This document shows, piece by piece, positions 6,959 to 34,038 of a DNA stretch of 64,000 bases (positions are counted from its first letter, which is position 1; every line of letters begins with the position of its first letter). The notes under the pieces are model-generated. The model was not told where the DNA came from. It did no database searches and worked only from the letters and a program-made list of their open reading frames with translations. This DNA is from a bacterium (GTDB lineage Bacteria; Patescibacteriota; Dojkabacteria; SC72), in the NCBI GenBank assembly GCA_021463465.1, contig JAJTYH010000002.1, positions 201,799 through 265,798 of the forward strand, given 5' to 3'. Made by a program: the position numbers and the translations under genes.

Positions 6959-7069
6959 AACTTTCCCTACGTTTGAAATTTCTGTTGAAATAAAGAGTTA
7001 ATCCTTCTACTAAATACACCTTGCGTATATTCATTAGAAGAATCAGTGAAGATGCTGAAGAGTAGTGTT

Positions 7070-7096
7070 GCCCTGCGGCATTCGCAGCCGCAGGGC
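7070..7096. terminator. GC-rich perfect hairpin (10-bp stem, 7-nt loop) between convergent genes
   Basis: gccctgcggc-attcgca-gccgcagggc. Weak T-run (cacttttac) follows on the + strand. Sits at the left edge of the GC-rich segment. Confidence 0.45.
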
Positions 7097-7106
7097 CAGA
7101 ACACTT

Positions 7107-7739: not shown

Positions 7740-7794
7740 ATGATCATCTCCTTGTTTGTAAGCGAATCTAACTTGATTTGTTTTTACCTATTTA

Positions 7795-7834
7795 CACCCA
7801 CTCAACTCTCTATAATTAAAGAGTTCAGTGGGTG
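7795..7834. promoter_or_regulatory. 15-bp inverted repeat with a TATAAT-like loop in a divergent intergenic region
   Basis: cacccactcaactct-ctataattaa-agagttcagtgggtg (one mismatch), between the start of the GC-rich gene (7739) and the next + strand gene. Confidence 0.4.
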
Positions 7835-8043
7835 AAACAGTTTTTCAAACCAATAAGTTCGCAAGGTGTAAAAATCATCTTCACTGATATATACCCGATA
7901 GTAGTAGATTAAAATCTTACTACCAAGTATTTTAAAAGATCAATCTAAATAAGAAATTCAGATCTGCACAATTATATAATAGGTGAGAAGGGGAAGTCAA
8001 TACTATAGGTTGTATGGCAGATGACAAATTGATATAATTGACG

Positions 8044-9201
8044 ATGGTTAATAATGCTAACACACAAGAAATTAATAGATTAAATGCGTTAAGGGAGCAA
8101 ATTACCTTTCCTATCGGAATGGATTCAGGAGAAATTTTGGATCAAGTACCTCAAGCAGAACAAATTTTAGCAGAGTTAGATGCTGGATTTGTTGAACTAC
8201 CTTCGCTTGATGAAGCCTTAAAGGCAAAACTTGGCGACAATGCGGAAAACCTTTTGAAAGCAGAAGGTTTTAGAGTGTTAGATATCAGAAACAATCAGTG
8301 CACATATCTATCTACCAAGAACCTCCCAAATGGCCGCAAAGAACTAAGGTCGCACTGGAAAAAACTCCTCAAAGAACTCCCAGAGGAAGCCTCTGTTAAG
8401 TCTATTGGTGATATTCTCCTAGTAACTCAGAGCGTTAAAGATGGAGTACTGACAAACAAACTTCATGTACTTGTAGATTTAAGAGAAAATGAATCAAGCA
8501 AAAAGGATGGGATAAGTCTATCAATACTTCAAGAGAAAGAAGACGGACATGTTTGGGATGTTAATAATTTGTACGGAATAAAGAGTAAAGTTTACTTGAA
8601 AAATAACGAACTGGTTTGGTTATTTATCAATCCATTTAAGTACTTTGGACGTATCGCCACAATTGATGGGAAAAATGTAATCCTAAACCGTTTATCACTT
8701 AATCCGGGGAGTCAAAGCTTCATTCCTGACATAGTCAAACATGAAAAGGTGCATATTAAACAGAGCTCAGAAGGAGTCCTTAAAATGGATGATGAGTTAA
8801 AGTTTGTTGCTTTTTCAATCCTTTTTCAAGATTTAGCCTCATTATCCTCACTTGCTGTTTTGATTCAACAAGGCTCACCTTGGCTATTTATGGCAAGTCT
8901 CACTGCAGCTTTAGCACTGTATATTCGTTCTAGACAAAAAGGAACTCCTTTGAACAAAGGACTGAGTAAACTACTAGCTGTTGAGGCAGAAGCATACTTT
9001 TCTTCTATTGCACACGAAAGAATTCTTAGAGATAAAGGGTATGTTGCAAGTAAACCTATACTACAACCCAAAGAGTATGCTAAACAACTTTCTTTATACC
9101 AACCTCTCACTTGGCTTTTGATCCAGAAAATTCATGAGCTTTTTACTAGGCGGAAGATAACAGCTGCTCCCTTACCGGCTACAGGATATTCTTTGAGTTA
9201 A
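8044..9201 (+). CDS. Hypothetical protein with an HExxH motif and C-terminal hydrophobic helices
   Basis: The ORF track starts on TTG at 8038; the first ATG is at 8044. VKHEKVHIKQ (HExxH) is followed by two predicted TM helices. No confident family. Confidence 0.4.
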   Translation: MVNNANTQEINRLNALREQITFPIGMDSGEILDQVPQAEQILAELDAGFVELPSLDEALKAKLGDNAENLLKAEGFRVLDIRNNQCTYLSTKNLPNGRKELRSHWKKLLKELPEEASVKSIGDILLVTQSVKDGVLTNKLHVLVDLRENESSKKDGISLSILQEKEDGHVWDVNNLYGIKSKVYLKNNELVWLFINPFKYFGRIATIDGKNVILNRLSLNPGSQSFIPDIVKHEKVHIKQSSEGVLKMDDELKFVAFSILFQDLASLSSLAVLIQQGSPWLFMASLTAALALYIRSRQKGTPLNKGLSKLLAVEAEAYFSSIAHERILRDKGYVASKPILQPKEYAKQLSLYQPLTWLLIQKIHELFTRRKITAAPLPATGYSLS

Positions 9202-9266
9202 AAGTCATTGACTCCCTACTAAAGAAATGCTTAAGTATATGAGTAAATAAATTTTGTCTCTGCCCA

Positions 9267-9614
9267 ATGGATATAGCGCAAATCAACGCTTTACTCGATT
9301 CACTAGAGGATTTGTTTAATAAAGCCGATGAAACTATTGTAAAACCTGAGAATAAGGTTTTTGTATTGGCCGGAATCTCAAACCTGAGAGATAATCCAAC
9401 TTCTGAAGAATTAGAAGGTTTCTTAGATGTGATAAAAGCTTACGCAACGCTCCCAAGCGAACAGCTTAACGCTATATCTGCCCAAGAATCACATGCAACT
9501 CAGCCACAAGTACCTTCACAAACAGCTGACGACAGTTTAGCGCAGGATCAAGCCAGACTTAAAGAATTACTTGAAAAGTTAAATAAATTAAATCAAAGCG
9601 CAGTTCAGGAGTAG
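9267..9614 (+). CDS. Small acidic hypothetical protein
   Basis: 115 aa, D/E/Q-rich, coiled-coil-like C-terminus. Immediately upstream of the giant ORF. Confidence 0.4.
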   Translation: MDIAQINALLDSLEDLFNKADETIVKPENKVFVLAGISNLRDNPTSEELEGFLDVIKAYATLPSEQLNAISAQESHATQPQVPSQTADDSLAQDQARLKELLEKLNKLNQSAVQE

Positions 9615-9691
9615 GCGAGAATACTCTTGTGCAATTTAGCAGAAAAACTTATATTAGTTGGTAATAACGAGTAAATTAAAAGTATTTTGTT

Positions 9692-10153
9692 ATGTTAAAA
9701 ATGCCAGATGTGTCAGTATTATCCCAAGATATTTTCCAGCTTTTAGGTATGGAAGCATTGGATGAAGTTGAGAAAGAGAAGTTTATGAACGATTTTTTGA
9801 ATTCAGTTTCAAAACAATTTTTCATTTCAAAGATTTTACCTTTCCTCAGTAATGAAGAAAAAGATAACTTATCTGACAAATACGAGAATTTGGATCAAAC
9901 AACTCTTCCAACTTTATTTGGTGAACTTTCAGAAAAGATTCCTAATATCGCTGATCTATATGTTGAATCCTTGAGAGAAGTCAAAGCGAAGCTTGTTACA
10001 GACACATACATCAACAAATCAGATATGCTTGAAGACTTAATTGCAAAAGAGAGTGACTCAGGTAAGGCTTCAGATTTGCGTGAGCAGTATGATTTATGTC
10101 AAAAAAACCTATCTTACGCACAAAACGGAAGATTCGATTTGATAACTAATTAA
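9692..10153 (+). CDS. Small acidic hypothetical protein
   Basis: 153 aa, acidic, helical. Stop lies 18 bp before the giant ORF's ATG. Confidence 0.4.
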   Translation: MLKMPDVSVLSQDIFQLLGMEALDEVEKEKFMNDFLNSVSKQFFISKILPFLSNEEKDNLSDKYENLDQTTLPTLFGELSEKIPNIADLYVESLREVKAKLVTDTYINKSDMLEDLIAKESDSGKASDLREQYDLCQKNLSYAQNGRFDLITN

Positions 10154-10171
10154 TATTTTTTATTGGAAAAC

Positions 10172-13100
10172 ATGTTAGCAGCACCTGGACGAGGAGAACT
10201 ACCAAGCTTTGAAAATCTAAATATTTCTCCAGAGAGCGCTGAAGAGTTAGGGAGAGATTTACGTAAAACTTTAGAGGCACTTGTAACTGGTTTCACTGGT
10301 GACTCTGGAGCAGCAAAAAAACTTCTCGAGAGTATGCTTGACCCGCAAAAAGAGCAAGCAGAGGGAAAAGTTCCAGAACGAACTAATGCTACACCTCTTT
10401 TGTCTGAGCAAAAGGGTGTGAAAAAGGTAGATAATGGACTTGAAATTGAAATTACTTCACCTGCGGTCAAGGAAGCTTTCATTGGCCCAAATGGGCGATC
10501 ATTGACAGAAGATATGTTCCAAGTCATCGCAGGAAGAGAAACGCAGGTAAGTGCCGCAGGTAAACCAGGAAATCTAAACTCGGGTCTTAGTGAAGTTAAA
10601 TCTGTCACTTTAGGCGGTGCCAATGTGAAGACAGGCTTTGATAGGTTAGAGCTTTCTAAAGGTGGTGATAAAGGATCTCCAAATGGTAACGAAGTTCTTA
10701 CTTTTGTAAAATTAGATCCAGAGGGGAAACCTGACCCAAAGAAGTCTGTCTCGATAAGAATTGAGAGAACTCAAAACGATACTAGTGGCATCCCTGATTC
10801 CAAAGTAATACTTTCCTTGGGCCTCCAAGAGACAAGTAACGCTATTACAGATAGTATTGGTAATATTCCAACGCGTTTATCACAAGTTGAATATTTACTG
10901 AAATTCAAACCGGATTTATCACTACAAGAAAAGGATGATTTGTCGGCCGAAGCCGCTTTGTTACGCGAACAGACAGTAACGGGTTTAAATGCAGAATCAA
11001 GACAAGCAAACCAGGCCTTGCTTTTTAAGGATTTGGCCTCAATTATTGCAATCGCTCGAGAAAGAGGACATTCAGTAACGTCTAGAGCTTCAATGGCTGA
11101 TTCAAATGAATCTGTTAGCTCAAGACAGTTTCAGGCTTTAGAAGTTTTCAATAGAATTATTGAGACACCTGGCTCTTTGATTAATCGATCAAAAAAAGCG
11201 GAGAAAAGAAGTGGAGACGTATCTGAAGATCAGAAGCTTTCCGACCTGAAGAGTTTTATAAATAAAGTTAGAGCCGATAGTAATGGAGAAGTTCCTGACC
11301 AAACGCCCAGGCAGGAAGTTCCAACTCCGTTAGGCGGTGAGTTGCAAACTAGCAATACTAAAAAGGAAGCTCCAAAGTCTATTGATGAGCTGAAGAAAGA
11401 TTTTGAAGGTGAACTCTCAGCAATTAAGGACTTGAGAAAGCGAAAAGAAGACTTAGAAGCAGAAATAAAAGCACTTAGTTCTGCTGATGCAGGAACCCTC
11501 TCCGTTGAAGAGAAAAAGAAACTTGAGTCTCTACAGAAGGACCTAGACGAGACAAAGCGCGGGTTAGAAATCTTAAAATCGCTTGGTGACATACAACTAT
11601 TTGACAGGAAAAAAAGTCTCAGAGATAAACTCAAAAACAGATTTCAGGATGAAATTGATTCTAGTACTGTCCTTACCCCTGAACAAATATCAAAACTCTC
11701 AGTTTCAGACTTACTTAGAATTCTTACCTTAAATGCCCAATACGCTAGCAAGAAAGATTCTACACCTGAAACAGCTGAAAAGGACAAACAGAATCTAGAC
11801 AAAATCAACGCTCTTATTGGTTTAGTCAATAGCTTCTCTGAAGCAAACCCTAATGCAGTAAAAGAGAGTAAAGGAAAAGATAAAAAGAAAGCAATCGACT
11901 TACTCACTGAGTGGTTAACTGCAAGAGAAACATCCCTAAGTACTGAAATTGACAAGCTCAACACAGCAGGAGCAACACTTGAAACAACTAACAAAGAGAG
12001 GGAAGAGAAGCTTGCAGCTTTGAAGAAGGAACTCGAGAAATTAGATGTTGATTTTGCAGCTACGCAATTAAAGGCAGCAAGTAGCTTAAGATCTCTTGGC
12101 GATCAAATCCCAACTGATGAATGGATCAAGTTAAGCAGCGCGCTGCATGAAGCTTCATTTGGTGATTTGCCAGAGAACCCCGAAGACACAAAAACAAAGA
12201 CTGAAGCCGCCGCCAATGCTTCTATCGCTTCAAATTGCCTTAGACATATTGATTTAGAGCTTGAGCAACGAATTGAGCCTGAAACTTCTAAGGTTAAGAA
12301 GTTCTTTAAACGAGCAGCTGAGGTACTTACATCTGTATTCGGTGGTATAGCCGCTCGAACAGCAGTTAAAGCTATAATAACTGGAACCCTAGGTTTAGCA
12401 CTTGGCGGTCCAGCAGGCTTATTGCTTGGTGGTGTTGCAGGGGCCTTGGCTGGAGGTGCTTCGAGTGCAATATTTAGTACTTGGATGCATTACAAGGTTT
12501 TCCACAACGACAAACTGCATGCGTTATATGCAGAGAATGCGAATCCTGGCAAATATGATTTCTTCAGATCTAGAATATTTGATAAGGCTAATGAGACTTA
12601 TGGTGTTAAAGCTCGAATCCAAAACATTGCAACCGTATACAATCAATTACTTTCGGGTCAACTAAAAGCCGATCAGTTAACACCTGATTTAGCTAAGACA
12701 GTACTGTCGGTTGTCAAAGACGCCAAGATGCTTAAAAACACCACCAATTTCATTGGTGTAAATAATCTAGGACTCGATGCGAATCTTTTCAAAAATGCTG
12801 CGGGTGAAACGGTTTTACCAGAAGATGCTTTACGAGATTTTGCTTTGAAATTTGATAATTTTGTCAACAACTCTATAAATGCAGGAAAATTAAACACTGA
12901 CGAAGTTTCAAAAGCACTTAGTGAAGCTGACAGTGAATCTAAGACAATGGTTAATGCAATGATAGCTTCAGCTTCTTGGACCAAATTCTTTAAAGGTGCT
13001 CTAATCGGAGGTGCTTCAGGCTTAATCGCACAAGGAATAGGAAATGCCCTCGAAGGAAAGGGCTTCTTAGGAACAGAAACTGGTGGGGTGACAAACTCAG

Positions 13101-15400
13101 CTGTAGGTTCAGTCACAGAATCACAAATGTCTGATGCAGATGTTTTGAAATTTAATGAAGAAGCTATGAAACGATTGGCTCCATACGGACAACAACAAGT
13201 AGCTCTCTTGCATCAAAACTACAGTAATGTTCCCGAAGCAGACTTACAAAAGATGTTTACCCAATTTGATGTAAATGGTAATGGAATACTTGAAGGCACT
13301 GAAGCAAATGCTCTAGTAGATTCACTTAATCAGTCAGGCTCAACTGGAGGTGTACCTACGTTAGTTGGTGCATGGGACGCACCTTATGATGGAAATATTT
13401 CAAAAGATGTACCACCTGAGTGGGTAGATACTTGGACCAAAGCAATCTACAATGTGGGTCGAGGACATGATTTCCATGGAGCTCAGTTTAGTATGCAGGG
13501 TGCTCCTGGAGGCGACTATTACGCTCTAGGACGGGCTTTAGATTACATGTCAAAGCATGTGCCAGCAGAGAGTATGAATACTCCCGAGGCTGGAATTTCG
13601 GTCTCCCATCTTTACGGCCACTTATTACTTGGAGGCCAACCAACCGATGCTCAATTAGCTGAATTCTTGACCAGGGTTGATGCCAAATATGAAGGTACAG
13701 ATTATGATATAAGCAAGATATTTACAGGTTCAGGTGAAGCAGTAACATCTTCTACAACCAATTCATCTGCATTGATTGCAGGAATGAACCAAATCACAAC
13801 GGCGGCCCAAAATGATGTAATGACTCTTTGGTCATCAATGGCTGAGAGCCCAACTATAACTGAGACAGTAAGCAACTCAGTGGCTAATTTTGTTGTTGAT
13901 ACCACAAAAGGTATAAATGAACTTGGCACTTCAGGTGCATTGGCAGGAATGGGTGTTTCTATGTGGCTAGCAAATATGTACACACCTGAGAATAGAGAGT
14001 ATGCCAAGGTGAAAGAGGCTGGCAAAGAAGGAGATAAGTCCGGTACACCTCCAGCAAATCAACCGGGAAATAGTTCAACTTCTGCAGGCTCAACAACACA
14101 AAAGGCAAATAACACACCTGGTAGTAACTCTGCAGACCAAACAGTTGAGACAGCAAACCGAAACAGTGGTCTTACAGATATCTCAGCCGCAAGTGCAAAA
14201 CAAGGAAGTGAATTGAAACCTTTTGGTAAAATTGAGTCTGCAGGAGTAGGCCTTTCTGCTGATAGTGAGAATACTAATCCAAATGTGGTAAATATTAATG
14301 CAGCAAACGGAAGATTTGTGGCATCAACCCCAGTATGGGTTAAGTCGCAAACAGGAAATGTCTCACAATTTGCCTACAGGCATCCAAGATTGGCTGAACT
14401 CTACAAAGAAGTTCTTTATATCGGCAATTTCATCAAACAATACGCCAAAACAACTGTTGGAATGAATAATGATCCTTTTGAGGCCCAAGTACTTGCAGAT
14501 ATTACAAAGTCAGTAGCTGCAAATGATAAGTATGCAGTAAGGAGACACGATGGAGGGGCCGTAAGCGTTGCGAGTTCACAGGTATATAACCTTGATCCCT
14601 ACAGAGCAAGAAAAAATGAACTCACGGCTGGACAAAACTTAAGAGAATTAAATGAAAGTGTTCGCCAGCCATTGGCCAAATTCGTCAAGAAAATGCTTGA
14701 GGTTGAATTTGGTGCAGGTGGATTAGGTCAGCAACACTTAGGTGATATTGATAGGGGAGTTCTTGATCTTTACATGAAGGATGGCGGCGAGAAATATATT
14801 AATAATGAGCAAGTACACGCATTCTTAGCTCTGCTTATGGTGTTGAATGATCCTGAAAATATGGAACCTAAATCCAAGTTCCTAAATCAAAAAGGTACAC
14901 AAGAATTCAATGGAATTGTAAATGTAATGATCTCTAGAGAGAGCGCATGGATGTCAATGTTATCACCAAAACTAAACGGCCAAAATTACCTAGGCTCAGC
15001 ATTCTTAGTGTCTGACGGAATTATTAGATCTGCACTTGAAATGAGCGGATATAATGTAAAGCCAGACCAAAGAGAAGCCCGACAGTACTTTACAAACGTG
15101 GATCAAATTGCGAGATCAGTAGCGTTGGTTAAAGGAGGCTCACCGTATAGTAATGCTCTGCAGTTAGTAAATCTTGCTAATCAAAACGGGGTAGAGTACT
15201 TCGCTCTAATGCGCGAAGCCACAGCAAAGGCACGAGCAGAAAAGAAAGGAAAGAAGAAAAAGCAACAGCAACAGCTAAATGATGCCGTAAGTGCAGTCCC
15301 AACAGTTACACCACAACCTGGCGAGGCCTTGCAAGATGAACCAGCACGTGAAGCAGTAGTAGTTGGAACGAACGAGCCAGCAGGTACAGATGAGATCTAA
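10172..15400 (+). CDS. Giant (1742-aa) multidomain protein with a coiled-coil region, a glycine-zipper membrane segment and a canonical EF-hand
   Basis: The track ORF begins on TTG at 10163; the first ATG is at 10172. Long heptad/KE-rich stretch (~aa 380-640). GxxxG-rich hydrophobic segment TGTLGLALGGPAGLLLGGVAGALAGGASSAIF. EF-hand loop DVNGNGILEGTE flanked by helices. Lys/Gln-rich C-terminal tail. Confidence 0.7.
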   Translation: MLAAPGRGELPSFENLNISPESAEELGRDLRKTLEALVTGFTGDSGAAKKLLESMLDPQKEQAEGKVPERTNATPLLSEQKGVKKVDNGLEIEITSPAVKEAFIGPNGRSLTEDMFQVIAGRETQVSAAGKPGNLNSGLSEVKSVTLGGANVKTGFDRLELSKGGDKGSPNGNEVLTFVKLDPEGKPDPKKSVSIRIERTQNDTSGIPDSKVILSLGLQETSNAITDSIGNIPTRLSQVEYLLKFKPDLSLQEKDDLSAEAALLREQTVTGLNAESRQANQALLFKDLASIIAIARERGHSVTSRASMADSNESVSSRQFQALEVFNRIIETPGSLINRSKKAEKRSGDVSEDQKLSDLKSFINKVRADSNGEVPDQTPRQEVPTPLGGELQTSNTKKEAPKSIDELKKDFEGELSAIKDLRKRKEDLEAEIKALSSADAGTLSVEEKKKLESLQKDLDETKRGLEILKSLGDIQLFDRKKSLRDKLKNRFQDEIDSSTVLTPEQISKLSVSDLLRILTLNAQYASKKDSTPETAEKDKQNLDKINALIGLVNSFSEANPNAVKESKGKDKKKAIDLLTEWLTARETSLSTEIDKLNTAGATLETTNKEREEKLAALKKELEKLDVDFAATQLKAASSLRSLGDQIPTDEWIKLSSALHEASFGDLPENPEDTKTKTEAAANASIASNCLRHIDLELEQRIEPETSKVKKFFKRAAEVLTSVFGGIAARTAVKAIITGTLGLALGGPAGLLLGGVAGALAGGASSAIFSTWMHYKVFHNDKLHALYAENANPGKYDFFRSRIFDKANETYGVKARIQNIATVYNQLLSGQLKADQLTPDLAKTVLSVVKDAKMLKNTTNFIGVNNLGLDANLFKNAAGETVLPEDALRDFALKFDNFVNNSINAGKLNTDEVSKALSEADSESKTMVNAMIASASWTKFFKGALIGGASGLIAQGIGNALEGKGFLGTETGGVTNSAVGSVTESQMSDADVLKFNEEAMKRLAPYGQQQVALLHQNYSNVPEADLQKMFTQFDVNGNGILEGTEANALVDSLNQSGSTGGVPTLVGAWDAPYDGNISKDVPPEWVDTWTKAIYNVGRGHDFHGAQFSMQGAPGGDYYALGRALDYMSKHVPAESMNTPEAGISVSHLYGHLLLGGQPTDAQLAEFLTRVDAKYEGTDYDISKIFTGSGEAVTSSTTNSSALIAGMNQITTAAQNDVMTLWSSMAESPTITETVSNSVANFVVDTTKGINELGTSGALAGMGVSMWLANMYTPENREYAKVKEAGKEGDKSGTPPANQPGNSSTSAGSTTQKANNTPGSNSADQTVETANRNSGLTDISAASAKQGSELKPFGKIESAGVGLSADSENTNPNVVNINAANGRFVASTPVWVKSQTGNVSQFAYRHPRLAELYKEVLYIGNFIKQYAKTTVGMNNDPFEAQVLADITKSVAANDKYAVRRHDGGAVSVASSQVYNLDPYRARKNELTAGQNLRELNESVRQPLAKFVKKMLEVEFGAGGLGQQHLGDIDRGVLDLYMKDGGEKYINNEQVHAFLALLMVLNDPENMEPKSKFLNQKGTQEFNGIVNVMISRESAWMSMLSPKLNGQNYLGSAFLVSDGIIRSALEMSGYNVKPDQREARQYFTNVDQIARSVALVKGGSPYSNALQLVNLANQNGVEYFALMREATAKARAEKKGKKKKQQQQLNDAVSAVPTVTPQPGEALQDEPAREAVVVGTNEPAGTDEI

Positions 15401-15461: not shown

Positions 15462-15491
15462 TTGACAAAGTCTCCAGACCTATAGTATAAT
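15462..15491 (+). promoter_or_regulatory. Consensus sigma70-type promoter (TTGACA-18 bp-TATAAT)
   Basis: ttgaca at 15462-15467 and tataat at 15486-15491, with an 18-bp spacer. Drives a ~170-nt leader ahead of the GC-rich ORF at 15666. Confidence 0.6.
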
Positions 15492-15565: not shown

Positions 15566-15618
15566 CAACTAACCAATATTGTTATTAATCACCTATTGAT
15601 ACCACTATTGGTTAGTTG
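15566..15618 (+). promoter_or_regulatory. 13-bp perfect inverted repeat in the 5' leader (operator or RNA stem)
   Basis: caactaaccaata ...27 nt... tattggttagttg, between the promoter and the SD (aaaggagg, 15651-15658). Confidence 0.45.
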
Positions 15619-15665
15619 TAATATCCAAAATCTTCAAGTGCCAAACACCACAAAGGAGGTCGTCA

Positions 15666-16084
15666 TGGCAGGTTTCTTTAGTTCGGTTTGGAATACGCTC
15701 ACGGGACGCGGTAAGGAGTCGCAATCAATGCAATTCATGCGTGAAACCGGAGCGGGTCAAGGGGACATTCGGGTGGCACGAGCAGCTCTCATTGACGCGG
15801 TCAACGCGGCGTGCATTGAGCTTGATATCGTTCTCAAACCCGGTGGAACCCAGGTAATCGAGAAGGCAATCCTTGAAGCTGTCGACCCAGGGTCGATCCA
15901 AAATCTTCAGCTTCTCCAGAGGATGCGCTCCATGGGAGTCTTAAACACTGGCATGATGATGCAATCGCCAACTCCAGCGATGGACCCAACAATGATTGCG
16001 CAAATCGTCAACCAGGTGATGGACGCTCGTGAAGCCGCCAAGCTCACCCAAACAGACCGGCCCCAAAAATCAGACGAGGTGTAA
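15666..16084 (+). CDS. Small hypothetical protein in a GC-rich (~55%) self-contained cassette
   Basis: Strong SD AAAGGAGG 7 nt upstream of the ATG at 15666; the track ORF start at 15596 lies inside the leader. Own promoter and terminator. No recognisable domain. Confidence 0.6.
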
Positions 16085-16112
16085 CAACCGAGTCAGCGTA
16101 CTGCATTCCCGT

Positions 16113-16141
16113 GGGGAAGCTCTCTTTTAGAAAGCTTCCCC
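16113..16141 (+). terminator. Rho-independent terminator
   Basis: ggggaagct-ctcttttagaa-agcttcccc, a perfect 9-bp stem, followed by a gttttgtgttt T-rich run. Confidence 0.65.
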
Positions 16142-16198
16142 CGGGTGTACGTTTTGTGTTTACATATATCAATATGTTTAGTATTTTTATATGTAAGT

Positions 16199-17425
16199 AT
16201 GAAATCACCTACTCACGAGAGTACAAACAAAAACCCTCGCCATATTGAGAAAATAGGGTTAAAAGCTGAAGCAACAGAAAGTTCACCAAACATCGAGACG
16301 GGACTAAGACTTTTAGGATCTGGTTTTGAAGGCGATACTTATGAATACAGGGCGAGAGATGGAAGTATTAAAGCCATAAAGGTTTTCAGACCTCGTGGGA
16401 AGGTATGGGATGACAACTATCATCAAGAGTTTGATGCTGCAGACCCAAACGACCCGAGAGAATTATCCAAAACAATATTTCGTGCAGCACATACAGCGAG
16501 ATGGGCAGATCGAATACAACATCCAGCACATCTGATTGAGGAGATTAACAAGCTCGATGACGAACTAATGGCGACAGGATCGAGTGCGTATAATATTCGA
16601 ACTCTACAAGAATCCTTTGCTAGGGTAGGTGATTTGAACACTAATGGCTTTAGAAATTATTTAACCCAAAGAGCATTAGCCCTGGGACAAAGGATTTTTG
16701 TTCCTGAAATAAATATTGACCCAAATTTCAAAGGTGGATTAGGCTCAGCGATTAATCGTTTAGTCGAATGGACAAGTACTAATTATCCTCAATTACAGCT
16801 GCCTAAAAGAATATTTCCCAGATTCATACAATTTGGAAAGTTTCCTGAAGACTATCCAAATCTTAAAGTCGCTGGAAGAGAGTATTTAGTTATGGAGAAA
16901 GTGCACTTGATTCTTGGTGACTATATAGAAAAGACTCAATCCAAAATACTTTCAATGGGCAGTATTTTATCTGATAGCCCTGAAATAGCTCAAGTTCAAC
17001 CCCTCCCAATCTCGATTCAACAGATTGCCGGAACTAGAACGAATCTAGAAATTTTAGCTTCTCTAGGATTAACCTTTGGTGATTTAAAATTGGGTAACAT
17101 AGCCTTTGACGCAGACAACACTCCAATTCTCATTGACCCCACTGCGGTGCTCAAAACTGGAAGTATCCAAGATATTGCTACTATGGACTACCTCCCTCCA
17201 CATGTTCAAGCACAAGTAAGAATGATGCAACCAATCAAGGGAGATCCTCAAAACGATATTTATGCTTTAAATCGAATACTTTCTATTATACAGCAGGAAT
17301 GGATGCAGGCTGTAATGCAAGGACTAAGAAAGAATACGCGTAATATAATGCATGATGAGAGGGTTGGGACAGAAACAGCCTCAACAATGCTTCAAAACTC
17401 AAGAAGAAATCAAAATACATTATAA
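16199..17425 (+). CDS. Protein-kinase-like (PKL) superfamily protein, atypical
   Basis: Track start is GTG at 16145; the first ATG is at 16199. LGSGFEGDTYEY (GxGxxG loop) with AIK lysine 14 aa later. FGDLKLGNIAF resembles the HRDLKxxN/HGDxxxGN catalytic loop; IDP may be the DFG-equivalent. The spacing between the Lys and the catalytic loop is unusually long. Confidence 0.45.
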   Translation: MKSPTHESTNKNPRHIEKIGLKAEATESSPNIETGLRLLGSGFEGDTYEYRARDGSIKAIKVFRPRGKVWDDNYHQEFDAADPNDPRELSKTIFRAAHTARWADRIQHPAHLIEEINKLDDELMATGSSAYNIRTLQESFARVGDLNTNGFRNYLTQRALALGQRIFVPEINIDPNFKGGLGSAINRLVEWTSTNYPQLQLPKRIFPRFIQFGKFPEDYPNLKVAGREYLVMEKVHLILGDYIEKTQSKILSMGSILSDSPEIAQVQPLPISIQQIAGTRTNLEILASLGLTFGDLKLGNIAFDADNTPILIDPTAVLKTGSIQDIATMDYLPPHVQAQVRMMQPIKGDPQNDIYALNRILSIIQQEWMQAVMQGLRKNTRNIMHDERVGTETASTMLQNSRRNQNTL

Positions 17426-17429
17426 AAAG

Positions 17430-19346
17430 ATGAGAAACTTTATCAAACCAACAATCCAAAGTTTATTGGAAAATATCTTCGAGAAATCTCAGCTTAAACA
17501 AATCCGTGAATTTGCTGAAAAAGAGCCTCTACTCAATCTAAAAACTCAAAAAACCGTATTTCCGGGTTCAAAGGAGACAGGAAAAGAAAATGTTGTACTG
17601 CCAGAAGTTGAGGTAACAACAAATCTTCCATTAAGTCATGACAAATTGCTACTAAACTCCACAGGGCAAAATGAGTGGCGAAGAGCTATTGGCTTTAGTC
17701 CATTGAATACACCTCAAACCAGAGAACGCATTGATAAGGGAGCAATGGTTATGGTTGTGAAATCAAAGGATGTCACAGCAATTGGAGTTAACCGACCCTC
17801 CACGCTAACATATCATCTTCCGCAAGATGCAAGTGCTATTTCTATTATGGAAGTTGACGGTGAATCAGTAATTGGTCTCCAGGTGGCAGATGGTACGACA
17901 TTCTTGGAGCTTGGAGATACAGAAATTCAAGCATGTAAGAGGCCGATTACAGGTGGAGATAAAATTACAAATCGCACTTCAAAAGTTCATTGCGATAGTG
18001 ATAGATGGGCGCACTTTGTTGCAAGAACTTCTGCGACAATAGGCTTACAAGGAGCTCAAAAGGGTTCAGGAACAATCAAAGGGATCTCGGAGAGTGACAG
18101 AGATAAGCTCGTGGAAGAAAATGGGGTTGGATCTTCAACCGCGCAATCATTATCAATTAAACGTACTGAAAAAGGTTATCATGCTCAAATAGTTGGGACA
18201 GGGGCAGAAAGAGATTTTGGCCAAATCTTCGTTGGGACTGACAAAAGAGCTGACCAGCTTGCACTTCTACCAAATATGGAAAATATTAGCCCCATGAATT
18301 CTAGCTCAAGGGTGCTTGGACTGGTTGGGAGGGAGCGGCTAATCCAACCAACTTTGGATGCCGATTTCGAAGCGGGCACTGCTTTTATTCTGACCTCTGA
18401 CGGTTTTTCACTAAAAAGTCCTCAAATAGGAGAGCTTTTAATCGATTATGCAAAAAACAAAACATCGGAACAGATTATACAAATTCTTCAAGACGCAAAA
18501 ATGCTTGATCTATTATTTGCGCACCCAGATGGAAAGAGACCCGCAAAAGACGATGGAACTCTTTGGTTAGTACTCCTTAACGACCAGGAAAAAGCTCAGT
18601 CTGAAGTTAATCAAAACTTACTCTTAGATGATTTACTTCATAAGGCCAAAGCTCTGTCAAACCTTTTTCCCAAAGCAGCAGAACAGATAAATAGAAGATT
18701 AGAAGAAATAAGGGCTCTTACTGATGAGATACTTCAATGGGTGGAATCAAGAACAAGTGACAGTGTAAGTGTAAATGATTTAAAAGATATTCAAAAAGCA
18801 ACTGAACAGGCCTTAGCAGCTGAAGCAGAACAAAAGGAACTAGAAAAAGAACTGGAATTAGTAAATGAAAGCAAAGTTCTTTTACAACATCATACCCTTA
18901 GTAATCAATATTACTCTGCGGCAATGCTAGATACAGTCGTATCGTTACGCAATGTTATAGGAACTGGAGAAGTTACGAGTAAAATTCTAGCGGAGTGCAT
19001 AGCTACTATTTCATCCGCCTTAAATGGTAACAAGAATATTAAAATTACCAATCAAAAACTCGTAAAGGTTGTTTTCGACGAGTTACTCGAAAAGAGACTA
19101 GCAATAACTAAAGAAGAGAAGTTTTTTGAAACTTTGACCAAATGGATTCAAGATCCTTCACAAGAAAATACTAAGGCTCTGAAATCGCAAATAAGTATTT
19201 CTCTTCCTCATTTAAATTCACTCACTCGCATAATACATAGCGAAGAAGATCAATTTAAAACTAAAGAGTACTTGTATTACTTAGAATATTCAAAAAAATT
19301 AGTACCTACTTGGAAAAACTTAGTAAATACCAAAATTAACGACTAA
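17430..19346 (+). CDS. PP2C-like phosphatase-domain protein with a C-terminal coiled-coil
   Basis: Track ORF begins at 17352, overlapping the upstream gene; an in-frame ATG at 17430 follows that gene's stop. AFILTSDGFS (LASDG-like motif) and DDGTLWLVLL (DD.TVIVV-like terminal motif). A long helical/KE-rich tail follows. Confidence 0.4.
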   Translation: MRNFIKPTIQSLLENIFEKSQLKQIREFAEKEPLLNLKTQKTVFPGSKETGKENVVLPEVEVTTNLPLSHDKLLLNSTGQNEWRRAIGFSPLNTPQTRERIDKGAMVMVVKSKDVTAIGVNRPSTLTYHLPQDASAISIMEVDGESVIGLQVADGTTFLELGDTEIQACKRPITGGDKITNRTSKVHCDSDRWAHFVARTSATIGLQGAQKGSGTIKGISESDRDKLVEENGVGSSTAQSLSIKRTEKGYHAQIVGTGAERDFGQIFVGTDKRADQLALLPNMENISPMNSSSRVLGLVGRERLIQPTLDADFEAGTAFILTSDGFSLKSPQIGELLIDYAKNKTSEQIIQILQDAKMLDLLFAHPDGKRPAKDDGTLWLVLLNDQEKAQSEVNQNLLLDDLLHKAKALSNLFPKAAEQINRRLEEIRALTDEILQWVESRTSDSVSVNDLKDIQKATEQALAAEAEQKELEKELELVNESKVLLQHHTLSNQYYSAAMLDTVVSLRNVIGTGEVTSKILAECIATISSALNGNKNIKITNQKLVKVVFDELLEKRLAITKEEKFFETLTKWIQDPSQENTKALKSQISISLPHLNSLTRIIHSEEDQFKTKEYLYYLEYSKKLVPTWKNLVNTKIND

Positions 19347-19406
19347 TTTACTTGTCCATACCACAAGAGTATAATCCCTCAATAATTACAAAAAACAATT
19401 AAAGTT

Positions 19407-21011
19407 ATGGCACCAAGACCCATAACTGCCCCACTAGAATTAGTTTCCCAGTTAGAGCAATTCAAAGAACACACACGTAATGGTGAAGATTTAACTGCAG
19501 AAGGTTTGACTACAACAATAAAAGCTTTTTCAAAAGCTATAAAGGTTGGATTTGAGGGTGCATCTGAATTCCTTTCAGAAGAAGCTGAACTTTCAAGAGA
19601 TGAGTTTTTCGCGGAGTATGTGCACTGGAGCGACAATGTTTTAGCCCTGGCCTTAAAACAAAAAGGAATAGACAGAGTTCTGGTTTCCACTCCAACGGGA
19701 ATTCAGGGCGCCGGTAAAGGAACATACGGTGACACTCTTCAAGTACTTGCACAGGAACTTGTCGAAGAAATGGCGTCTGGACAACCTAAAAAATACAAAC
19801 AACTGGTTACTCAACCTGACGCAATCACAGAGAAATGTGTTGCCCGAGCGAGATCACAAGAAGTAAAAACGGGTACAGGAGGAATTTTTAACCATAAAAA
19901 CACAAGATCTGAGATAACTACAGACGAAGAACGCGAATATTTCGATCTCTTCAATGATATGAAAAATGCAATGGGTGCTGCAAAGGGCGTTTTTGTAGAG
20001 AACAATATTGTAGCCATTGCATTAAACCTTTATATGGCATTAAAAGTAATGCAGAATGAGGAAGGTATAAGTTCATTCAATATCGACCTCTATCCAAGAT
20101 CTCAGCGTCAGATTGAACTTTTAGAACAGACAACTGGAACACTCCAAGACAACGGGATAGTCCTTGAACATAGCACTATTGATTTTAAACTCCTCAATGA
20201 AGAACAGGTCCAACAGTTACTAAGATACAAAAACAGCGCTCTTGCAATTCTCCCAAAGGTACAAGAAGGTTTTACAACTGTAATTAAAAGGGTCGAAGAA
20301 GTATTTAGAAGCCACTCAGATGATTACACCTTTGATGAACTACGAAAAGATCTGACCGGTATTATAATGAGTGCTTCAGAAGGCGAAACTGATGCAATGA
20401 GAGCAGCTGAGTTGATGCTAAATGAGTGTTTAAGTGCAGCAAATAGAACAGAAAAACGTGGCAAAGAGTCCAAACGACCAGACGATCGTCCAATACCACT
20501 CCTAAAACGATTAAAAGATTACTTTGCCAAGTCATTTGCCATACCATTCCTATTCGAAAACCCTATGATGTTTGCCACAGACTACAAACCCGAAGAGGTT
20601 GCAAGAAAAGTCTTTTGTAAGTATTTCAGTATTGAACATTCTGCACCAGAACTTCAAAATGGCGGTAAGTACTATGATCTTTACAGAAGATACCAATACT
20701 TAGCCGCATGCAAAGTGTATGGAGAGTTTAAAGGTGACTTAGAGCTCAGACAAATAAAAAGGGAAAAGCCTGATTCAACTGAGTTGATTTACTGGGGAGA
20801 AGCTGGGAATGTAATATTTTATTCGTTCATTCAAAAACCTGGTGGTAACTCAGTTATGTACACAATAGGACATAAAGGAACTACTTTTACAGAAGATATC
20901 CCAGGATTAGCTAATACACTTAAGCTAGAAATTCCACAAACCCAAACAATTGCTGAGTTTATTGAGAATAATCCTCCACTTTGGTATCAACTAGAAGGTA
21001 TCTTCATTTAA
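19407..21011 (+). CDS. P-loop kinase-like protein (GxxGxGKGT Walker A, adenylate/nucleotide-kinase-like)
   Basis: STPTGIQGAGKGTYGDTL P-loop; the rest is unrecognised. Convergent 8-bp overlap with the integrase. Confidence 0.45.
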   Translation: MAPRPITAPLELVSQLEQFKEHTRNGEDLTAEGLTTTIKAFSKAIKVGFEGASEFLSEEAELSRDEFFAEYVHWSDNVLALALKQKGIDRVLVSTPTGIQGAGKGTYGDTLQVLAQELVEEMASGQPKKYKQLVTQPDAITEKCVARARSQEVKTGTGGIFNHKNTRSEITTDEEREYFDLFNDMKNAMGAAKGVFVENNIVAIALNLYMALKVMQNEEGISSFNIDLYPRSQRQIELLEQTTGTLQDNGIVLEHSTIDFKLLNEEQVQQLLRYKNSALAILPKVQEGFTTVIKRVEEVFRSHSDDYTFDELRKDLTGIIMSASEGETDAMRAAELMLNECLSAANRTEKRGKESKRPDDRPIPLLKRLKDYFAKSFAIPFLFENPMMFATDYKPEEVARKVFCKYFSIEHSAPELQNGGKYYDLYRRYQYLAACKVYGEFKGDLELRQIKREKPDSTELIYWGEAGNVIFYSFIQKPGGNSVMYTIGHKGTTFTEDIPGLANTLKLEIPQTQTIAEFIENNPPLWYQLEGIFI

Positions 21012-22281
21012 GCGGATGCTTATCTTTGTGAGTATCTGAAGCAAATTTGTCAGATGCATGCACATACCTTGTTGTTGTATTAAGGCTTTCATGACCTAAC
21101 AGGACTTGAATTGCAGCTGGATTAGCACCATTTTCAGCCAAATATGTAGCAAAGCCATGCCTCAGACTGTGAGCTGAAGTGGGAACTAAAATACCCAGTC
21201 TACGCCTATACTGCGCGATTTTCTCTTGAAAGTAGTTTGAAGATATTCGCATATTTTCTTTCTTTTTTCCTCTTCCAGAGAATGGAATAAACAGAGCAGG
21301 GGAGTCAAACTTCGTAAGGAAGTTATTTTTCCTAAAGTCTTCTACTAGAGCTATAAAACGGTAGGAGTGATTTCCATCAGAAACAGCGGCCATCAGCTCA
21401 GAGCCTTTCAATGTTTCACGCTCCGTGTCATGAATATGCTTTAAGCGCACTTCTAAATACTTATCTAACCAACTCATGGCCCTTGGTGTCATGTATACGA
21501 AACGTTGCTTTTTCCCTTTACCTAAAATAAAAAGCTTACCATCCAAATTTACTTGATCCAAGTTAAGGCCAATCAGTTCTGAAATACGCATACCTGTTGA
21601 AAAAAGTAGCTCTAGCATTGCACGATTGCGCACACTTACTTCATAATCCTTTTCAAATTCGCTCGGTGCTTCAATTAAGCTAATCAATTCATCCAGCTCA
21701 GCAACCTGAGACTTTTTCTTCTCAGCCTTAATTAGTTTAATTGCATCCGGCGCAATTGGAATTTCTAAATCTCTATCAATTCTAAATTTTAAATACGAAC
21801 GAATCGCAGATAACATTCGATTCACACTTCGAGCATCCAAACCCGTAGTCGACCTCGCGGAAGCGTTTTGGGGTTTGTTTGACATTCCCAGACTGCCAAA
21901 GACTTTTTTATATACATTATCGAGAAAACCAGGCTGATCCATAGGTGTTGTTAGAGCACCTGATACCTCTTCATCGCTTTTAGGGCCATCGTAGCCCGTC
22001 GCTGGACTTTGTACCGTACTATCAAGCTTTCTAAGACTTTCAGCTCTGAATTTATCCAAATCTTTCAAATGTTCGCCACTTCGAAGATAACCTTTATAAA
22101 TAGTAATCTCTTCTTTGGAGAGTTTAAGGAATTGGACATCTTTGAAATGTAAAAAGACTGCAAAGATAGATAGGTCCCTGGCATAGTTGAAGACTGTCTG
22201 CATACTGTAGTTATTATTCTGAAGATCTAAAAGGAATTTGTCCTGTTCTGGTAGCTTAGGGATTGTTATGTTTTTGGACAT
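21004..22281 (-). CDS. Tyrosine site-specific recombinase / phage-type integrase
   Basis: ARSVNRMLSAIRSYL (Arg I box) and HSLRHGFATYLAENGANPAAIQVLLGHESLNTTTRYVH (box II, HxxR...Y catalytic tyrosine). N-terminal SAM-like core-binding region. Confidence 0.9.
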   Translation of the reverse strand: MSKNITIPKLPEQDKFLLDLQNNNYSMQTVFNYARDLSIFAVFLHFKDVQFLKLSKEEITIYKGYLRSGEHLKDLDKFRAESLRKLDSTVQSPATGYDGPKSDEEVSGALTTPMDQPGFLDNVYKKVFGSLGMSNKPQNASARSTTGLDARSVNRMLSAIRSYLKFRIDRDLEIPIAPDAIKLIKAEKKKSQVAELDELISLIEAPSEFEKDYEVSVRNRAMLELLFSTGMRISELIGLNLDQVNLDGKLFILGKGKKQRFVYMTPRAMSWLDKYLEVRLKHIHDTERETLKGSELMAAVSDGNHSYRFIALVEDFRKNNFLTKFDSPALFIPFSGRGKKKENMRISSNYFQEKIAQYRRRLGILVPTSAHSLRHGFATYLAENGANPAAIQVLLGHESLNTTTRYVHASDKFASDTHKDKHPLK

Positions 22282-26502: not shown

Positions 26503-27336
26503 TCACTTCCAAAGCTCTCTATCGTAAAGAGCTAGAAACTCCCGATGTCTAGAACCTTTTGGCTGGTCACTATGAATCAATTGAACCCCGCTAGCGAGAT
26601 AAAGATAAGGAAGCATCTGTGAGTATTCCAAGTCAAAACGGGAAATATAAAGCCTATCCAGCCTTACTAACCTCTTACCCACTTCATACAAATTTCTGTA
26701 GAAAGTTGGTACATGACCCGGAGCATCCGAGACCACAGCCGTAACAGCCGTCATAGCTATATCTAAAAGATGATTACCCGAAAAGGCATCACTCCAATCT
26801 AAAATATAGATTCCGTTATCTTGATTAACAATTAAGTTTCCGTGATGGAAGTCCCCATGACACAAACAAACCTTATGAGGACGGCTTAGAGTCTCTAACA
26901 TTCTATCTTTCTCAACATCACTTAACTCCTTTGAAGCTTTAATCTCCGGACTGATTTTATCCCACTGTGAAAGAATATCTACTTCAATATTTGCAAGTGT
27001 TGAATGTGCCTCTGAGACTTTACGAACCACGTCAAAGTATGTCCAGGGTTTTCTCATCAATCCATTCATCAAAGACTCTCCAGTAACGAATTCAAAGATA
27101 ATGCCACGCTTACCTTCTGTCTGAATAAGTTCTAATGGTGTCGCGACGTTCAAGTCCCCTACCTTCGAGATTTTCAGAGTTTTCTCAAACTCTTCTGTTA
27201 TATAACTTTCGGGAACATCTGCGTTATACAGTTTGACTGACTCATTCTTACTGAAACGAAAAACAGTGGACCTACGACCGTGATCAATAATTGGAAGTTT
27301 ATCCAGTAGCTCCTTCGAATCTAAATACTTACTCAC
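26503..27336 (-). CDS. Phosphotransferase (APH/choline-kinase-like) family protein
   Basis: LCHGDFHHGNLIV (HGDxxxxN brace/catalytic loop) and ILDWSDA (metal-binding Asp). Confidence 0.7.
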   Translation of the reverse strand: MSKYLDSKELLDKLPIIDHGRRSTVFRFSKNESVKLYNADVPESYITEEFEKTLKISKVGDLNVATPLELIQTEGKRGIIFEFVTGESLMNGLMRKPWTYFDVVRKVSEAHSTLANIEVDILSQWDKISPEIKASKELSDVEKDRMLETLSRPHKVCLCHGDFHHGNLIVNQDNGIYILDWSDAFSGNHLLDIAMTAVTAVVSDAPGHVPTFYRNLYEVGKRLVRLDRLYISRFDLEYSQMLPYLYLASGVQLIHSDQPKGSRHREFLALYDRELWK

Positions 27337-34010: not shown

Positions 34011-34038
34011 GGTTTTTAAATTACAATTAAGTTTTAAC

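Follow-up and report, generated by a model that had tools for sequence, protein, structure and literature searches.

A small protein (S), a divergent Hanks-type Ser/Thr protein kinase (K, the product of gene P1) and a predicted PP2C/PPM-type phosphatase (P, the product of gene P2) are encoded side by side at 15665-19346 on the + strand of the window, that is, the whole 64,000-nucleotide stretch analysed here. The best explanation of this arrangement, and one that we hold to be reasonably probable, is an S-K-P signalling cassette followed by a separate, independent gene, P3. The original prediction had described three consecutive genes at 16199-21011, and the ORF positions bear this out, with P1 (16199-17425), P2 (17430-19346) and P3 (19407-21011) in tandem on the + strand. 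K comprises 408 aa when counted from the ATG used by NCBI and by its homologues, the alternative GTG start at 16145 adding a hydrophobic leader that is absent from all homologues. P (638 aa) starts 4 nt past the P1 stop codon, and a 60-nt gap separates P2 from P3 (534 aa). The motifs quoted for these products were all found (LLGSGFEGDTY...IKAIKVF and FGDLKLGN in K, ILTSDGF and KDDGTLWLVLL in P, GIQGAGKGT in P3), and they go beyond chance because they are invariant columns of the family alignments. The high divergence claimed for the three proteins was equally borne out: none of them brings any Pfam or NCBIfam model to its cut-off, and a word-indexed search of 5.8 billion proteins with K and P returned self-matches only.

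Comparison across loci revealed a P homologue directly after the kinase in 8 independent loci (the window, L005, L007, L008, L009, L011, L013 and L016), at intergenic distances that range from an overlap up to 56 nt (4 nt in the window). The P0015 contig has the same gene order, as judged from size alone. Bacteria usually encode a dedicated PPM phosphatase in the operon of its one kinase (PMC6213207). Next to the P3 homologues in L001-L004 there is neither a kinase nor a phosphatase, K or P homologues in 7 other loci come without P3, and the syntenic Dojkabacteria locus (L005) has S-K-P and no P3. Among the loci compared, only about 9 in number, P3 occurs together with the kinase and phosphatase in this window alone. 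P3 is thus independent of S-K-P and an unrelated neighbour, and the proposal that the three genes form one functional set is not supported, since P3 occurs separately in other loci. All S-K-P relatives found so far are on contigs from uncultivated bacteria or metagenomes, one of them labelled Candidatus Dojkabacteria.

Based on family alignment, PDB profile and Pfam matches, K is a member of a rare, very divergent family of Hanks-type Ser/Thr kinases, represented by about a dozen clusters only among 1.84 billion representative proteins. Its family profile matched 840 PDB kinases, with SGK1 as the best (E 2.8e-7) followed by PKA, RSK2 and PknA, in colinear matches that cover both lobes, and 4 of the 11 family members matched Pfam Pkinase, PF00069 (up to 2.4e-7), in agreement with the protein-kinase-like nature first predicted. 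Searched alone against Pfam, K stayed below the gathering threshold, with only APH/fructosamine-kinase matches (E 0.05-0.08); its kinase homology is therefore supported transitively, through the matches of the profile and of other family members. K would escape automatic kinase annotation.

Conservation of the catalytic residues was confirmed in the alignment of 11 K homologues. The Gly-rich loop (G40-S-G-F-E-G45) and the beta3 Lys in I-K-A-I-K61 lie in a region that aligns with the N-lobe of PKA and SGK1, with G42 and K61 (codon 16379-16381) invariant. The catalytic loop, F-G-D295-L-K297-L-G-N300, aligns to 'YRDLKPEN' of SGK1/PKA; D295 (17081-17083) and N300 are invariant, K297 almost invariant. 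Because the His-Arg pair is absent, FGD replacing HRD, the kinase is of the non-RD type. The Asp at the DFG position, D313 (17135-17137), is invariant as well ('LIDPT' in K, 'LLDPS' in relatives), and T328-x-[ED]-Y-L-P aligns with 'TPEYLAPE'. Neither the Phe-Gly of DFG nor the APE Glu is retained across the family. Further downstream, D353 is invariant within a D353-x-[YF]-A-L motif, which we take to correspond to the F-helix Asp motif of PKA ('DWWALG'), the PDB profile alignment stopping at profile position 351, before D353. The distance from K61 to the hinge ('VMEKV/VMEYVP') is about 170 residues in K vs about 48 in PKA, that is, about 120 extra residues, and within this insertion no invariant Glu could be assigned as the alphaC partner of the beta3 Lys in the alignment of 11 sequences.

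The N-terminal domain of P (residues ~53-385; 17430..18584, + strand) is predicted to be a PP2C/PPM-type phosphatase domain. An AF2 model of residues 1-405, built from 3 sequences and of low confidence (pTM 0.67, mean pLDDT 58.8), was compared with the PDB using Foldseek. All 50 top matches were PPM-fold proteins, as the PP2C-like assignment had anticipated, with SpoIIE as the best (1.3e-6, probability 1.0) and target-normalised TM-scores of up to 0.53. The structures matched included SpoIIE, PstP, PP2Calpha, tPphA, RsbU, PPM1B and HAB1, and the best among them are bona fide bacterial protein phosphatases. When compared with the metal ligands of PPM motifs 1, 2, 8 and 11 (D38, D60, D239 and D282 of PP2Calpha), the candidate ligands of P follow the PPM order with similar spacing: D133 ('QD', codon 17826-17828), D154-G155 ('ADG', D154 at 17889-17891), D324-G325 ('SDG', D324 at 18399-18401) and D374-D375 ('DDG', 18549-18554) are invariant in 8 homologues at 20-27% pairwise identity. 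A weak hhalign alignment with the PPM domain of SpoIIE (E 0.059) extends from motif 8 through motif 11 and places D324 and D375 in register with 'SDG' and 'EDD'. No PPM model in Pfam or NCBIfam matched P, the Pfam models of this family being PF00481, PF07228 and PF13672, and profiles of the P family found no PPM protein in the PDB. The C-terminal half (18585..19346, + strand) is helical and charged, poorly conserved, and variable in length and sequence among homologues, which span 450-827 aa as whole proteins. The long coiled-coil proposed for P is borne out in this half as far as helicity is concerned, but not in its heptads: a crude heptad test picked out residues 451-481 only, shuffled sequence performed equally well, and database matches of the coiled-coil type were weak. 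This half is possibly a regulatory or localisation region.

The gene for S (15665..16084, + strand; ATG after AAGGAGG), overlooked in the original prediction, is the real third member of the group. Its 139-aa product consists of a helical N-terminal part of ~90 aa followed by a Pro/Gln/Ala-rich tail with an acidic end. An S-like protein usually precedes the kinase and is found upstream in at least 6 loci, directly so in L005, L007, L008, L009 and L013, and as a partial copy in L011. Sequence conservation is weak (pairwise E 2e-5 at best, close pairs aside), and searches of Pfam and the PDB gave no relative. S, the partner conserved upstream of the kinase, is a candidate substrate or adaptor. 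Further upstream lies a sigma-70-like promoter candidate (TTGACA-18-TATAAT, 12/12; 15462..15491, + strand), a consensus match of a kind no more frequent across the region than in shuffled sequence. Between this candidate and the S start, a near-perfect palindrome (15566..15618) with 24-nt arms, 88% complementary, and a 5-nt spacer may serve as an operator or form a hairpin in the 5' UTR.

P3 (19407..21011, + strand) is best read as a divergent nucleotide-kinase-like enzyme of the adenylate/UMP-CMP-kinase superfamily, since all its matches in NCBIfam, Pfam and the PDB are NMP kinases, consistent with the adenylate-kinase-like assignment made at the outset. P3 itself scores 21 bits vs a cut-off of 187 for NF001381, and members of its family reach E 6.4e-8 against ADK models, still under curated cut-offs. 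In the alignment of 4 sequences, G98 and Q100 through G105, including G101-A-G-K-G105, are invariant within the P-loop V-L-V-S-T-P-T-G-I-Q-G-A-G-K104-G-T (K104 codon 19716-19718, + strand), as are D227, R231 and Q235 in I-D227-L-Y-P-R231-S-x-x-Q235 and the residues R347, R351, R357, D359-D360 and R368. These Asp/Arg motifs align with M. tuberculosis ADK and human UMP-CMP kinase and presumably also with R88, R123, R156, D158-D159 and R167 of E. coli Adk. At the NMP-site motif [ST]-T-G-D-x-x-R (T31 and R36 in E. coli), the P3 family has K-T-G-T-G-G-I-F-x-H; the equivalent Arg is absent and the acceptor site is therefore probably altered. Foldseek searches with a P3 model (pLDDT 67) returned nothing significant, with ADKs and AvrRxo1 at a probability of ~0.35. 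A promoter-like site in the 60-nt gap before P3 (19347..19375, + strand; a 10/12 consensus match) would fit separate transcription of P3.

The location of these genes inside an island, as initially suggested, is not supported. P3 is convergent with a gene for a tyrosine recombinase (21004..22281, - strand; Pfam Phage_integrase 2.3e-34), their 3' ends overlapping by 8 nt. Syntenic copies with 67-73% identity occur in L001, L004 and L005, and the gene adjoins a membrane protein, RuvB, RuvA, RuvC and YebC in a conserved position; by similarity and synteny it is a conserved Xer-like chromosomal gene, not an element-specific integrase. GC content is 0.37-0.41 inside the region and likewise outside, with no shift, no tRNA was found near the trio (the nearest is at 34038), and no meaningful direct repeats flank the region. 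Searches for PADLOC defence families gave nothing significant (none below E 1e-3), no relatives were found on viral contigs, and neither S, K, P nor P3 has a hydrophobic leader or transmembrane segment; the effector/immunity framing is thus not supported either. On the other side, S-K-P is preceded, here as in Dojkabacteria UBA2022, by a gene for a giant protein (1745 aa; 10163..15400, + strand) whose central block is hydrophobic, with a peak at ~737-771. This protein shares 37% identity over 1706 aa with its counterpart in L005/L012; L001 has an unrelated giant protein at the corresponding position.

In the explanation that we favour, S-K-P would probably be one operon, as gene spacing and consensus promoter matches suggest, and would act as a self-contained, lineage-specific cytoplasmic switch for Ser/Thr phosphorylation, that is, as ordinary signalling. 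K appears catalytically complete by its motifs, if non-RD, and has no sensor domain, so that it is probably constitutively active. P would be its cognate PP2C/PPM-type phosphatase, the variable helical C-terminal half probably supplying regulation or localisation, and S would most likely act as the dedicated substrate or adaptor, its phosphorylation state being the output. P3 would be a separately transcribed P-loop phosphotransferase that has kept the ATP-side catalytic residues but lacks the 'TGxxxR' Arg, and that merely sits in a variable stretch between the gene of the giant envelope protein and the chromosomal Xer recombinase.

Several other readings of the region were weighed. That P1, P2 and P3 form a phospho-signalling or nucleotide-modifying effector/immunity set on a genomic island would account for three tandem genes on one strand beside a tyrosine recombinase, for the differences among related genomes (L001 without K-P, L005 without P3) and for the fast evolution of all three proteins. 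It appears very improbable, however, in view of the conserved, syntenic, Xer-like recombinase, the absence of GC shift, tRNA and flanking repeats, the PADLOC and viral searches and P3 never standing beside K-P outside the window in the loci compared. An equally doubtful proposal makes S-K-P a module of the toxin-antitoxin or abortive-infection type, in which K would be the toxin, P the antidote and S a sensor or regulator. The compact three-gene format, the patchy distribution in varied contexts, the PIN-domain genes near the cassette in L013 and PADLOC matches to MkoA (0.011) and SspB (0.0013) point in that direction, but these matches are weak and cover generic kinase or helical regions only, viral contigs have no relatives, no other defence genes are adjacent, and the same chromosomal position in two Dojkabacteria genomes argues for vertical inheritance. 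Misassignment concerns the enzymes themselves: at least one of the three could be a pseudoenzyme or wrongly identified, for instance if P were not a PPM protein and its model an artefact, or if P3 were a non-catalytic ADK-like scaffold. The low pLDDT (58.8) of the P model, the failure of sequence profiles to find PPM proteins, and, for P3, a model with no significant structural match and an absent R36-equivalent Arg all leave room for this. It is nevertheless an improbable outcome, as the 50 top structural matches of P share one fold at a probability of ~1.0, its four Asp positions are invariant in PPM order and spacing at 20-27% pairwise identity, the P-loop Lys, the DxxPR Asp/Arg and the LID Arg/Asp of P3 are all invariant, and P3 family members match ADK models significantly.

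[quoted passage not shown] Lem3 (4.5e-4) and SidD (1.1e-3) are among the PPM-fold matches of P, giant proteins adjoin the cassette in the window, L005 and L016, and the strong divergence and variable C-terminal regions would also fit. Yet signal peptides and transmembrane segments are absent, as are adjacent secretion-system genes, the cassette is found in unrelated contexts too (glycosyltransferases, PIN toxins, RadA), the kinase has canonical phosphotransfer motifs rather than those of AMPylases or phosphocholine transferases, and the top structural matches of P are genuine bacterial protein phosphatases, all of which makes this account quite unlikely. Slightly better placed, if still improbable, is a broader proposal of an undescribed CPR-specific circuit resembling a partner switch, in which a Hanks-type kinase takes the place of the GHKL kinase and phosphorylation of S controls the giant envelope protein and hence host attachment, or in which the host receives K and P as an effector pair of modifier and demodifier.

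The S-K-P cassette thus remains the preferred reading. Signal transduction in CPR bacteria is almost unexplored, and 'hypothetical' is the annotation that most of their lineage-specific genes carry. Four such genes now have testable assignments, K and P as a kinase with its phosphatase, S as a probable substrate and P3 as a nucleotide-kinase-like enzyme, and they define a rare kinase family with an unusual N-lobe insertion whose partner has a predicted PP2C domain missed by sequence methods. They also illustrate the limits of reasoning from adjacency, as comparative context resolved an apparent trio into a bystander and a cassette that begins one gene further upstream. Should S prove to be the dedicated substrate, S-K-P would offer a compact model of Ser/Thr signalling in ultra-small bacteria.

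Compared with adenylate and UMP-CMP kinases (PF00406, TIGR01351, TIGR01359), P3 has GxxGxGKGT, D-x-[FY]-P-R-[ST]-x-x-Q and the short-LID R...R...R-x-D-D...R in the same order. In contrast to these enzymes, it has 534 aa instead of ~190-215 aa, with an N-terminal helical extension of ~85 aa, insertions after the P-loop and before the LID and a C-terminal beta domain of ~90 aa; it is without the NMP-site Arg (E. coli R36) and far below family cut-offs, and its gene adjoins Xer rather than standing in a ribosomal-protein operon. P has the PPM fold in common with the Legionella deAMPylase SidD and dephosphocholinase Lem3, both significant or near-significant structural matches that rank below genuine protein phosphatases. 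The SidD gene adjoins the gene of its opposing enzyme. The partner here is, unlike theirs, a canonical kinase and not a Fic/AMPylase enzyme, and signs of secretion are absent.

SpoIIE and an RsbU-type domain being among the best structural matches of P, the cassette invites comparison with SpoIIE-SpoIIAA-SpoIIAB and RsbU-RsbV-RsbW, which have the same three-gene logic of a PPM phosphatase, a kinase and a small protein with a possible phosphorylation output. In contrast to these partner-switching modules, the kinase is of the Hanks type and not a GHKL anti-sigma factor, no STAS domain is detectable in S (Pfam, PDB), and no sigma factor gene is adjacent. S-K-P was accordingly not assigned to the partner-switching modules, S having no Pfam or PDB relative and the kinase being Hanks-type rather than GHKL. 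Further parallels are PknB/PstP of M. tuberculosis, PrkC/PrpC of B. subtilis and Stk1/Stp1 of S. aureus, where, as here, the genes of a Hanks-type kinase and of a PP2C-fold phosphatase adjoin and are probably co-transcribed, with conserved catalytic motifs and one phosphatase per kinase (PMC6213207). Differences from these systems concern all three products: K has no transmembrane segment, PASTA or other sensor domain, is non-RD and carries the ~120 extra N-lobe residues; P escapes sequence profiles of Pfam and the PDB, and its helical C-terminal half is long and variable; the order is kinase followed by phosphatase, and the pair is usually preceded by the conserved small protein S.

The original prediction of three consecutive genes agrees with the open reading frames found on the forward strand, which encode a kinase-like protein, hereafter K (16199-17425, 408 aa), a PP2C-like protein, P (17430-19346, 638 aa), and an adenylate-kinase-like protein, P3 (19407-21011, 534 aa), and every motif quoted for them is present. 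P starts 4 nt past the stop codon of K, and P3 follows after a 60-nt gap. A promoter match at 10/12 positions (19347-19375; consensus match only) stands just ahead of P3. A longer version of K, starting at a GTG in position 16145, would add a hydrophobic leader; the K homologues and the NCBI annotation all begin near the ATG and not at this GTG. The three products were rightly described as highly divergent, since querying Pfam, NCBIfam, PADLOC and PDB with each protein singly returned sub-threshold matches only. Those of K fell on fructosamine, APH and LanL kinases around the catalytic loop, those of P3 on adenylate and UMP-CMP kinases, and P had no meaningful match.

A word-indexed search of 5.8 billion proteins retrieved three relatives of P3, and for K and P only self-matches, annotated at NCBI as 'hypothetical protein IT417_02865/70 [bacterium]'. 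An exhaustive HMMER search, using the concatenated K and P sequences against 1.84 billion cluster representatives, revealed ten relatives of K (E 3e-58 to 6e-4) and two of P (E 5e-17 and 9e-7). Judged by these sequence matches, both families are real though rare, and literature searches found no description of them. Scans with narrower kinase alignments yielded one locus in the genome collection, identical to locus L005, and one informative locus in metagenomes; the metagenome match L015, an ordinary Firmicute kinase adjoining SpoIIE, was set aside. One locus matches, with complete identity, a Candidatus Dojkabacteria bacterium UBA2022 contig that has the gene order of the window, which makes a related CPR bacterium the very probable source of the window. 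Between the database copy of P (P0002, 636 aa) and the translation from the window, the only difference lies in the final ~18 residues (window ~19290-19346), suggesting that two assemblies of a single organism differ by a frameshift.

Based on its conserved residues and family profile, K is almost certainly a Hanks-type Ser/Thr kinase with a kinase fold. Six columns are invariant in an alignment of 11 sequences, namely G42 of the Gly loop, the beta3 Lys K61, D295 and N300 of the D-L-K-x-x-N motif, D313 at the DFG position, and D353, which we take to be the F-helix Asp. The family profile matched 840 kinase sequences in PDB, led by SGK1 (2.8e-7) and followed by PKA, RSK2 and PknA, the N-lobe and the catalytic and activation segments being colinear, and Pfam Pkinase was matched by 4 of the 11 members (up to 2.4e-7). 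The family carries FGD at the HRD site, a replacement that makes K a predicted non-RD kinase. The distance from the Lys to the hinge ('VMEYVP') reaches about 170 residues, versus about 48 in PKA, and this N-lobe insertion has conserved motifs of its own (NARWAD, GGL..N and LP.R.FP..FG). In this family the alphaC Glu could not be identified, and K has neither a transmembrane segment nor a sensor domain.

The N-terminal domain of P probably adopts the PP2C/PPM fold, an assignment that comes from structure prediction and is beyond what sequence methods can establish by themselves. For residues 1-405, AlphaFold was run on an alignment of 3 sequences and gave a model with a pTM of 0.67 and a mean pLDDT of 58.8. 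In a Foldseek search of PDB, its top 50 matches were all PPM-fold proteins, with SpoIIE the best (1.3e-6) and PstP, PP2Calpha, tPphA, PPM1B, HAB1, an RsbU-type domain, Lem3 and SidD among the others; this uniformity argues that the model is not meaningless. In 8 homologues that share 20-27% identity, D133, D154-G155, D324-G325 and D374-D375 are among the invariant residues, arranged in the order of PPM motifs 1, 2, 8 and 11 and at about the same spacing. Profiles of 3, 6 and 8 sequences retrieved no PPM proteins from PDB. Alignment by hhalign reached only E ~0.05-0.06, with a PstP sequence entered by hand over motif 8 alone and with the real SpoIIE PPM domain (E 0.059) over motifs 8 to 11. The C-terminal half of P is helical and lacks conservation, family members ranging from 450 to 827 aa in full length, and the long coiled-coil originally attributed to P was not confirmed, its crude heptad score being no better than that of shuffled sequence.

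P3 is very probably a homologue of the NMP kinases. The predicted adenylate-kinase-type P-loop gained support from an alignment of 4 sequences, in which a beta-strand followed by T-G-I-Q-G-A-G-K-G-T is invariant, together with D227-x-x-P-R231-S-x-x-Q235, the counterpart of DGFPRTxxQ, and with R347, R351, R357-x-D-D and R368, which follow the short-LID pattern seen in UMP-CMP kinases. The 6 PDB matches of the profile were all adenylate or UMP-CMP kinases, colinear and each at E about 0.1-0.5, and NCBIfam matches, found for 3 of the 4 members, were exclusively to NMP kinases (best 6.4e-8); hhalign with an E. coli Adk sequence, again entered by hand, gave E 0.006 over the NMP-binding region. The structure model (pLDDT 67) had no significant Foldseek match in PDB. 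The NMP-site motif of the family lacks its Arg, which may mean a different acceptor. A search for a canonical adk gene, covering the 64 kb of the window, did not find one.

The proposal that the trio forms one set was not borne out by genomic context. In loci L001/L002 and L004, P3 homologues adjoin a Xer recombinase (73% identical to that of the window) and a RuvBAC/YebC block, are preceded by an unrelated giant protein or by other genes, and have no kinase or phosphatase alongside. L001, a relative with P3 and without K and P, also carries an extra 130-aa gene between P3 and Xer (L001 8149-8541, minus strand) that is missing from the window. Conversely, the UBA2022 locus (L005=L006=L012) contains no P3 and otherwise shares the gene order of the window, namely genes of 113 and 159 aa, one for a giant protein (1755 aa), one of 152 aa, and then the kinase, the P homologue and Xer. 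A P-family gene also lies immediately 3' of the kinase in L007, L008, L009, L011, L013 and L016, so that the order is sequence-verified in 8 independent loci including the window, and gene sizes alone give the same order in the P0015 contig. No P3 relatives occur in the flanks of the sequence-verified loci other than the window, and P3 is predicted to be an independent, divergent NMP-kinase-like enzyme.

A companion of K, absent from the original gene set, is the small gene S (15665-16084), directly before the kinase and preceded by an AAGGAGG Shine-Dalgarno sequence. S-like proteins occupy the same position in L005, L007, L008, L009 and L013, and L011 has a partial one. The N-terminal ~90 residues of S are helical and weakly conserved and carry an S-x-[ST]-x-R segment close to their start; the tail of S is Pro/Gln/Ala-rich with an acidic end, and no relative was found in Pfam or PDB. 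Upstream of S are a 12/12 sigma-70-like promoter match (15462-15491; consensus match only) and, in the leader of the gene, a palindrome with 24-nt arms, 88% complementary, and a 5-nt spacer (15566-15618), which may serve the S-K-P genes as an operator or as a hairpin with a regulatory role. The preceding gene (10163-15400, plus strand) encodes a giant 1745-aa protein with a Gly/Ala-rich hydrophobic central block (~residues 737-771) and weak EF-hand-like matches. Its 1755-aa counterpart in UBA2022 is 37% identical, and an unrelated 1738-aa giant of similar architecture takes its position in L001. The giant of the window seems to be a quickly evolving protein of the envelope or of host interaction. 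Ahead of it, three plus-strand genes of 387, 115 and 153 aa (8038-10153) have no known domains and have homologues in L005 (24-44% identity), that of the 387-aa gene lying there on the opposite strand. A local GC-rich patch (7001-8000; 0.455 vs ~0.39) includes a minus-strand ORF (7107-7739) of 210 aa that begins with a hydrophobic leader and has no match in Pfam.

Neither the location inside an island nor the effector/immunity role that had been suggested for these genes found support. No tRNA was found near the trio, no flanking repeats, no relatives in viral contigs and no compositional shift, GC being flat across the region at about 0.37-0.41. PADLOC returned nothing significant for a defence system, and S, K, P and P3 are devoid of leader or transmembrane segments. 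The remainder of the window is ordinary chromosome, with genes for GyrA, VanY, GH26, a cellulose-synthase-like GT2, Xer, RuvB, RuvA, RuvC, YebC and others. The recombinase (21004-22281, minus strand) is a positionally conserved Xer-like tyrosine recombinase, syntenic with RuvBAC/YebC in three genomes, whose 3' end overlaps the P3 stop codon by 8 nt. Its unusual length (425 aa) includes an insert of ~80 residues splitting the N-terminal SAM-like domain, which Pfam matches at residues 14-67 and 142-170; the catalytic domain follows at 198-411. Also on the minus strand are an APH-family phosphotransferase (26503-27336; Pfam APH 2.4e-13) and an 854-aa TrwB/HerA-like ATPase (27329-29893), whose start is overlapped by the APH-family gene and which is kept beside YebC in the Dojkabacteria locus too. 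From the small upstream genes to Xer, the DNA varies among related genomes and shows no mobile-element hallmarks.

We consider it fairly likely that the region comprises an S-K-P phosphorylation cassette and a separate P3 enzyme. S-K-P would act as a cytoplasmic cassette of reversible Ser/Thr phosphorylation, in which the sensor-less non-RD kinase K is countered by a dedicated PPM phosphatase, P, with regulation possibly supplied by its variable C-terminal half, and S is a probable substrate or adaptor; the enzymatic activities, co-transcription and this role of S are what we infer. It appears unlikely that the cassette works as a partner-switch that is based on a Hanks kinase and controls the giant envelope protein next to it, or as a modifier/demodifier pair directed at a host. 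The S-K-P cassette appears restricted to uncultivated CPR-type bacteria. What is new is its form, with a rare kinase family bearing a large N-lobe insertion, a predicted PPM domain that sequence profiles miss, and an apparently obligatory small partner. A kinase/PP2C pair is itself a system of known kind and would not greatly surprise a specialist. The logic of S-K-P resembles partner-switching, a family of which it is not a member, and its arrangement matches one common in bacteria, where a single kinase has its own dedicated PPM phosphatase encoded in the same operon (PMC6213207).
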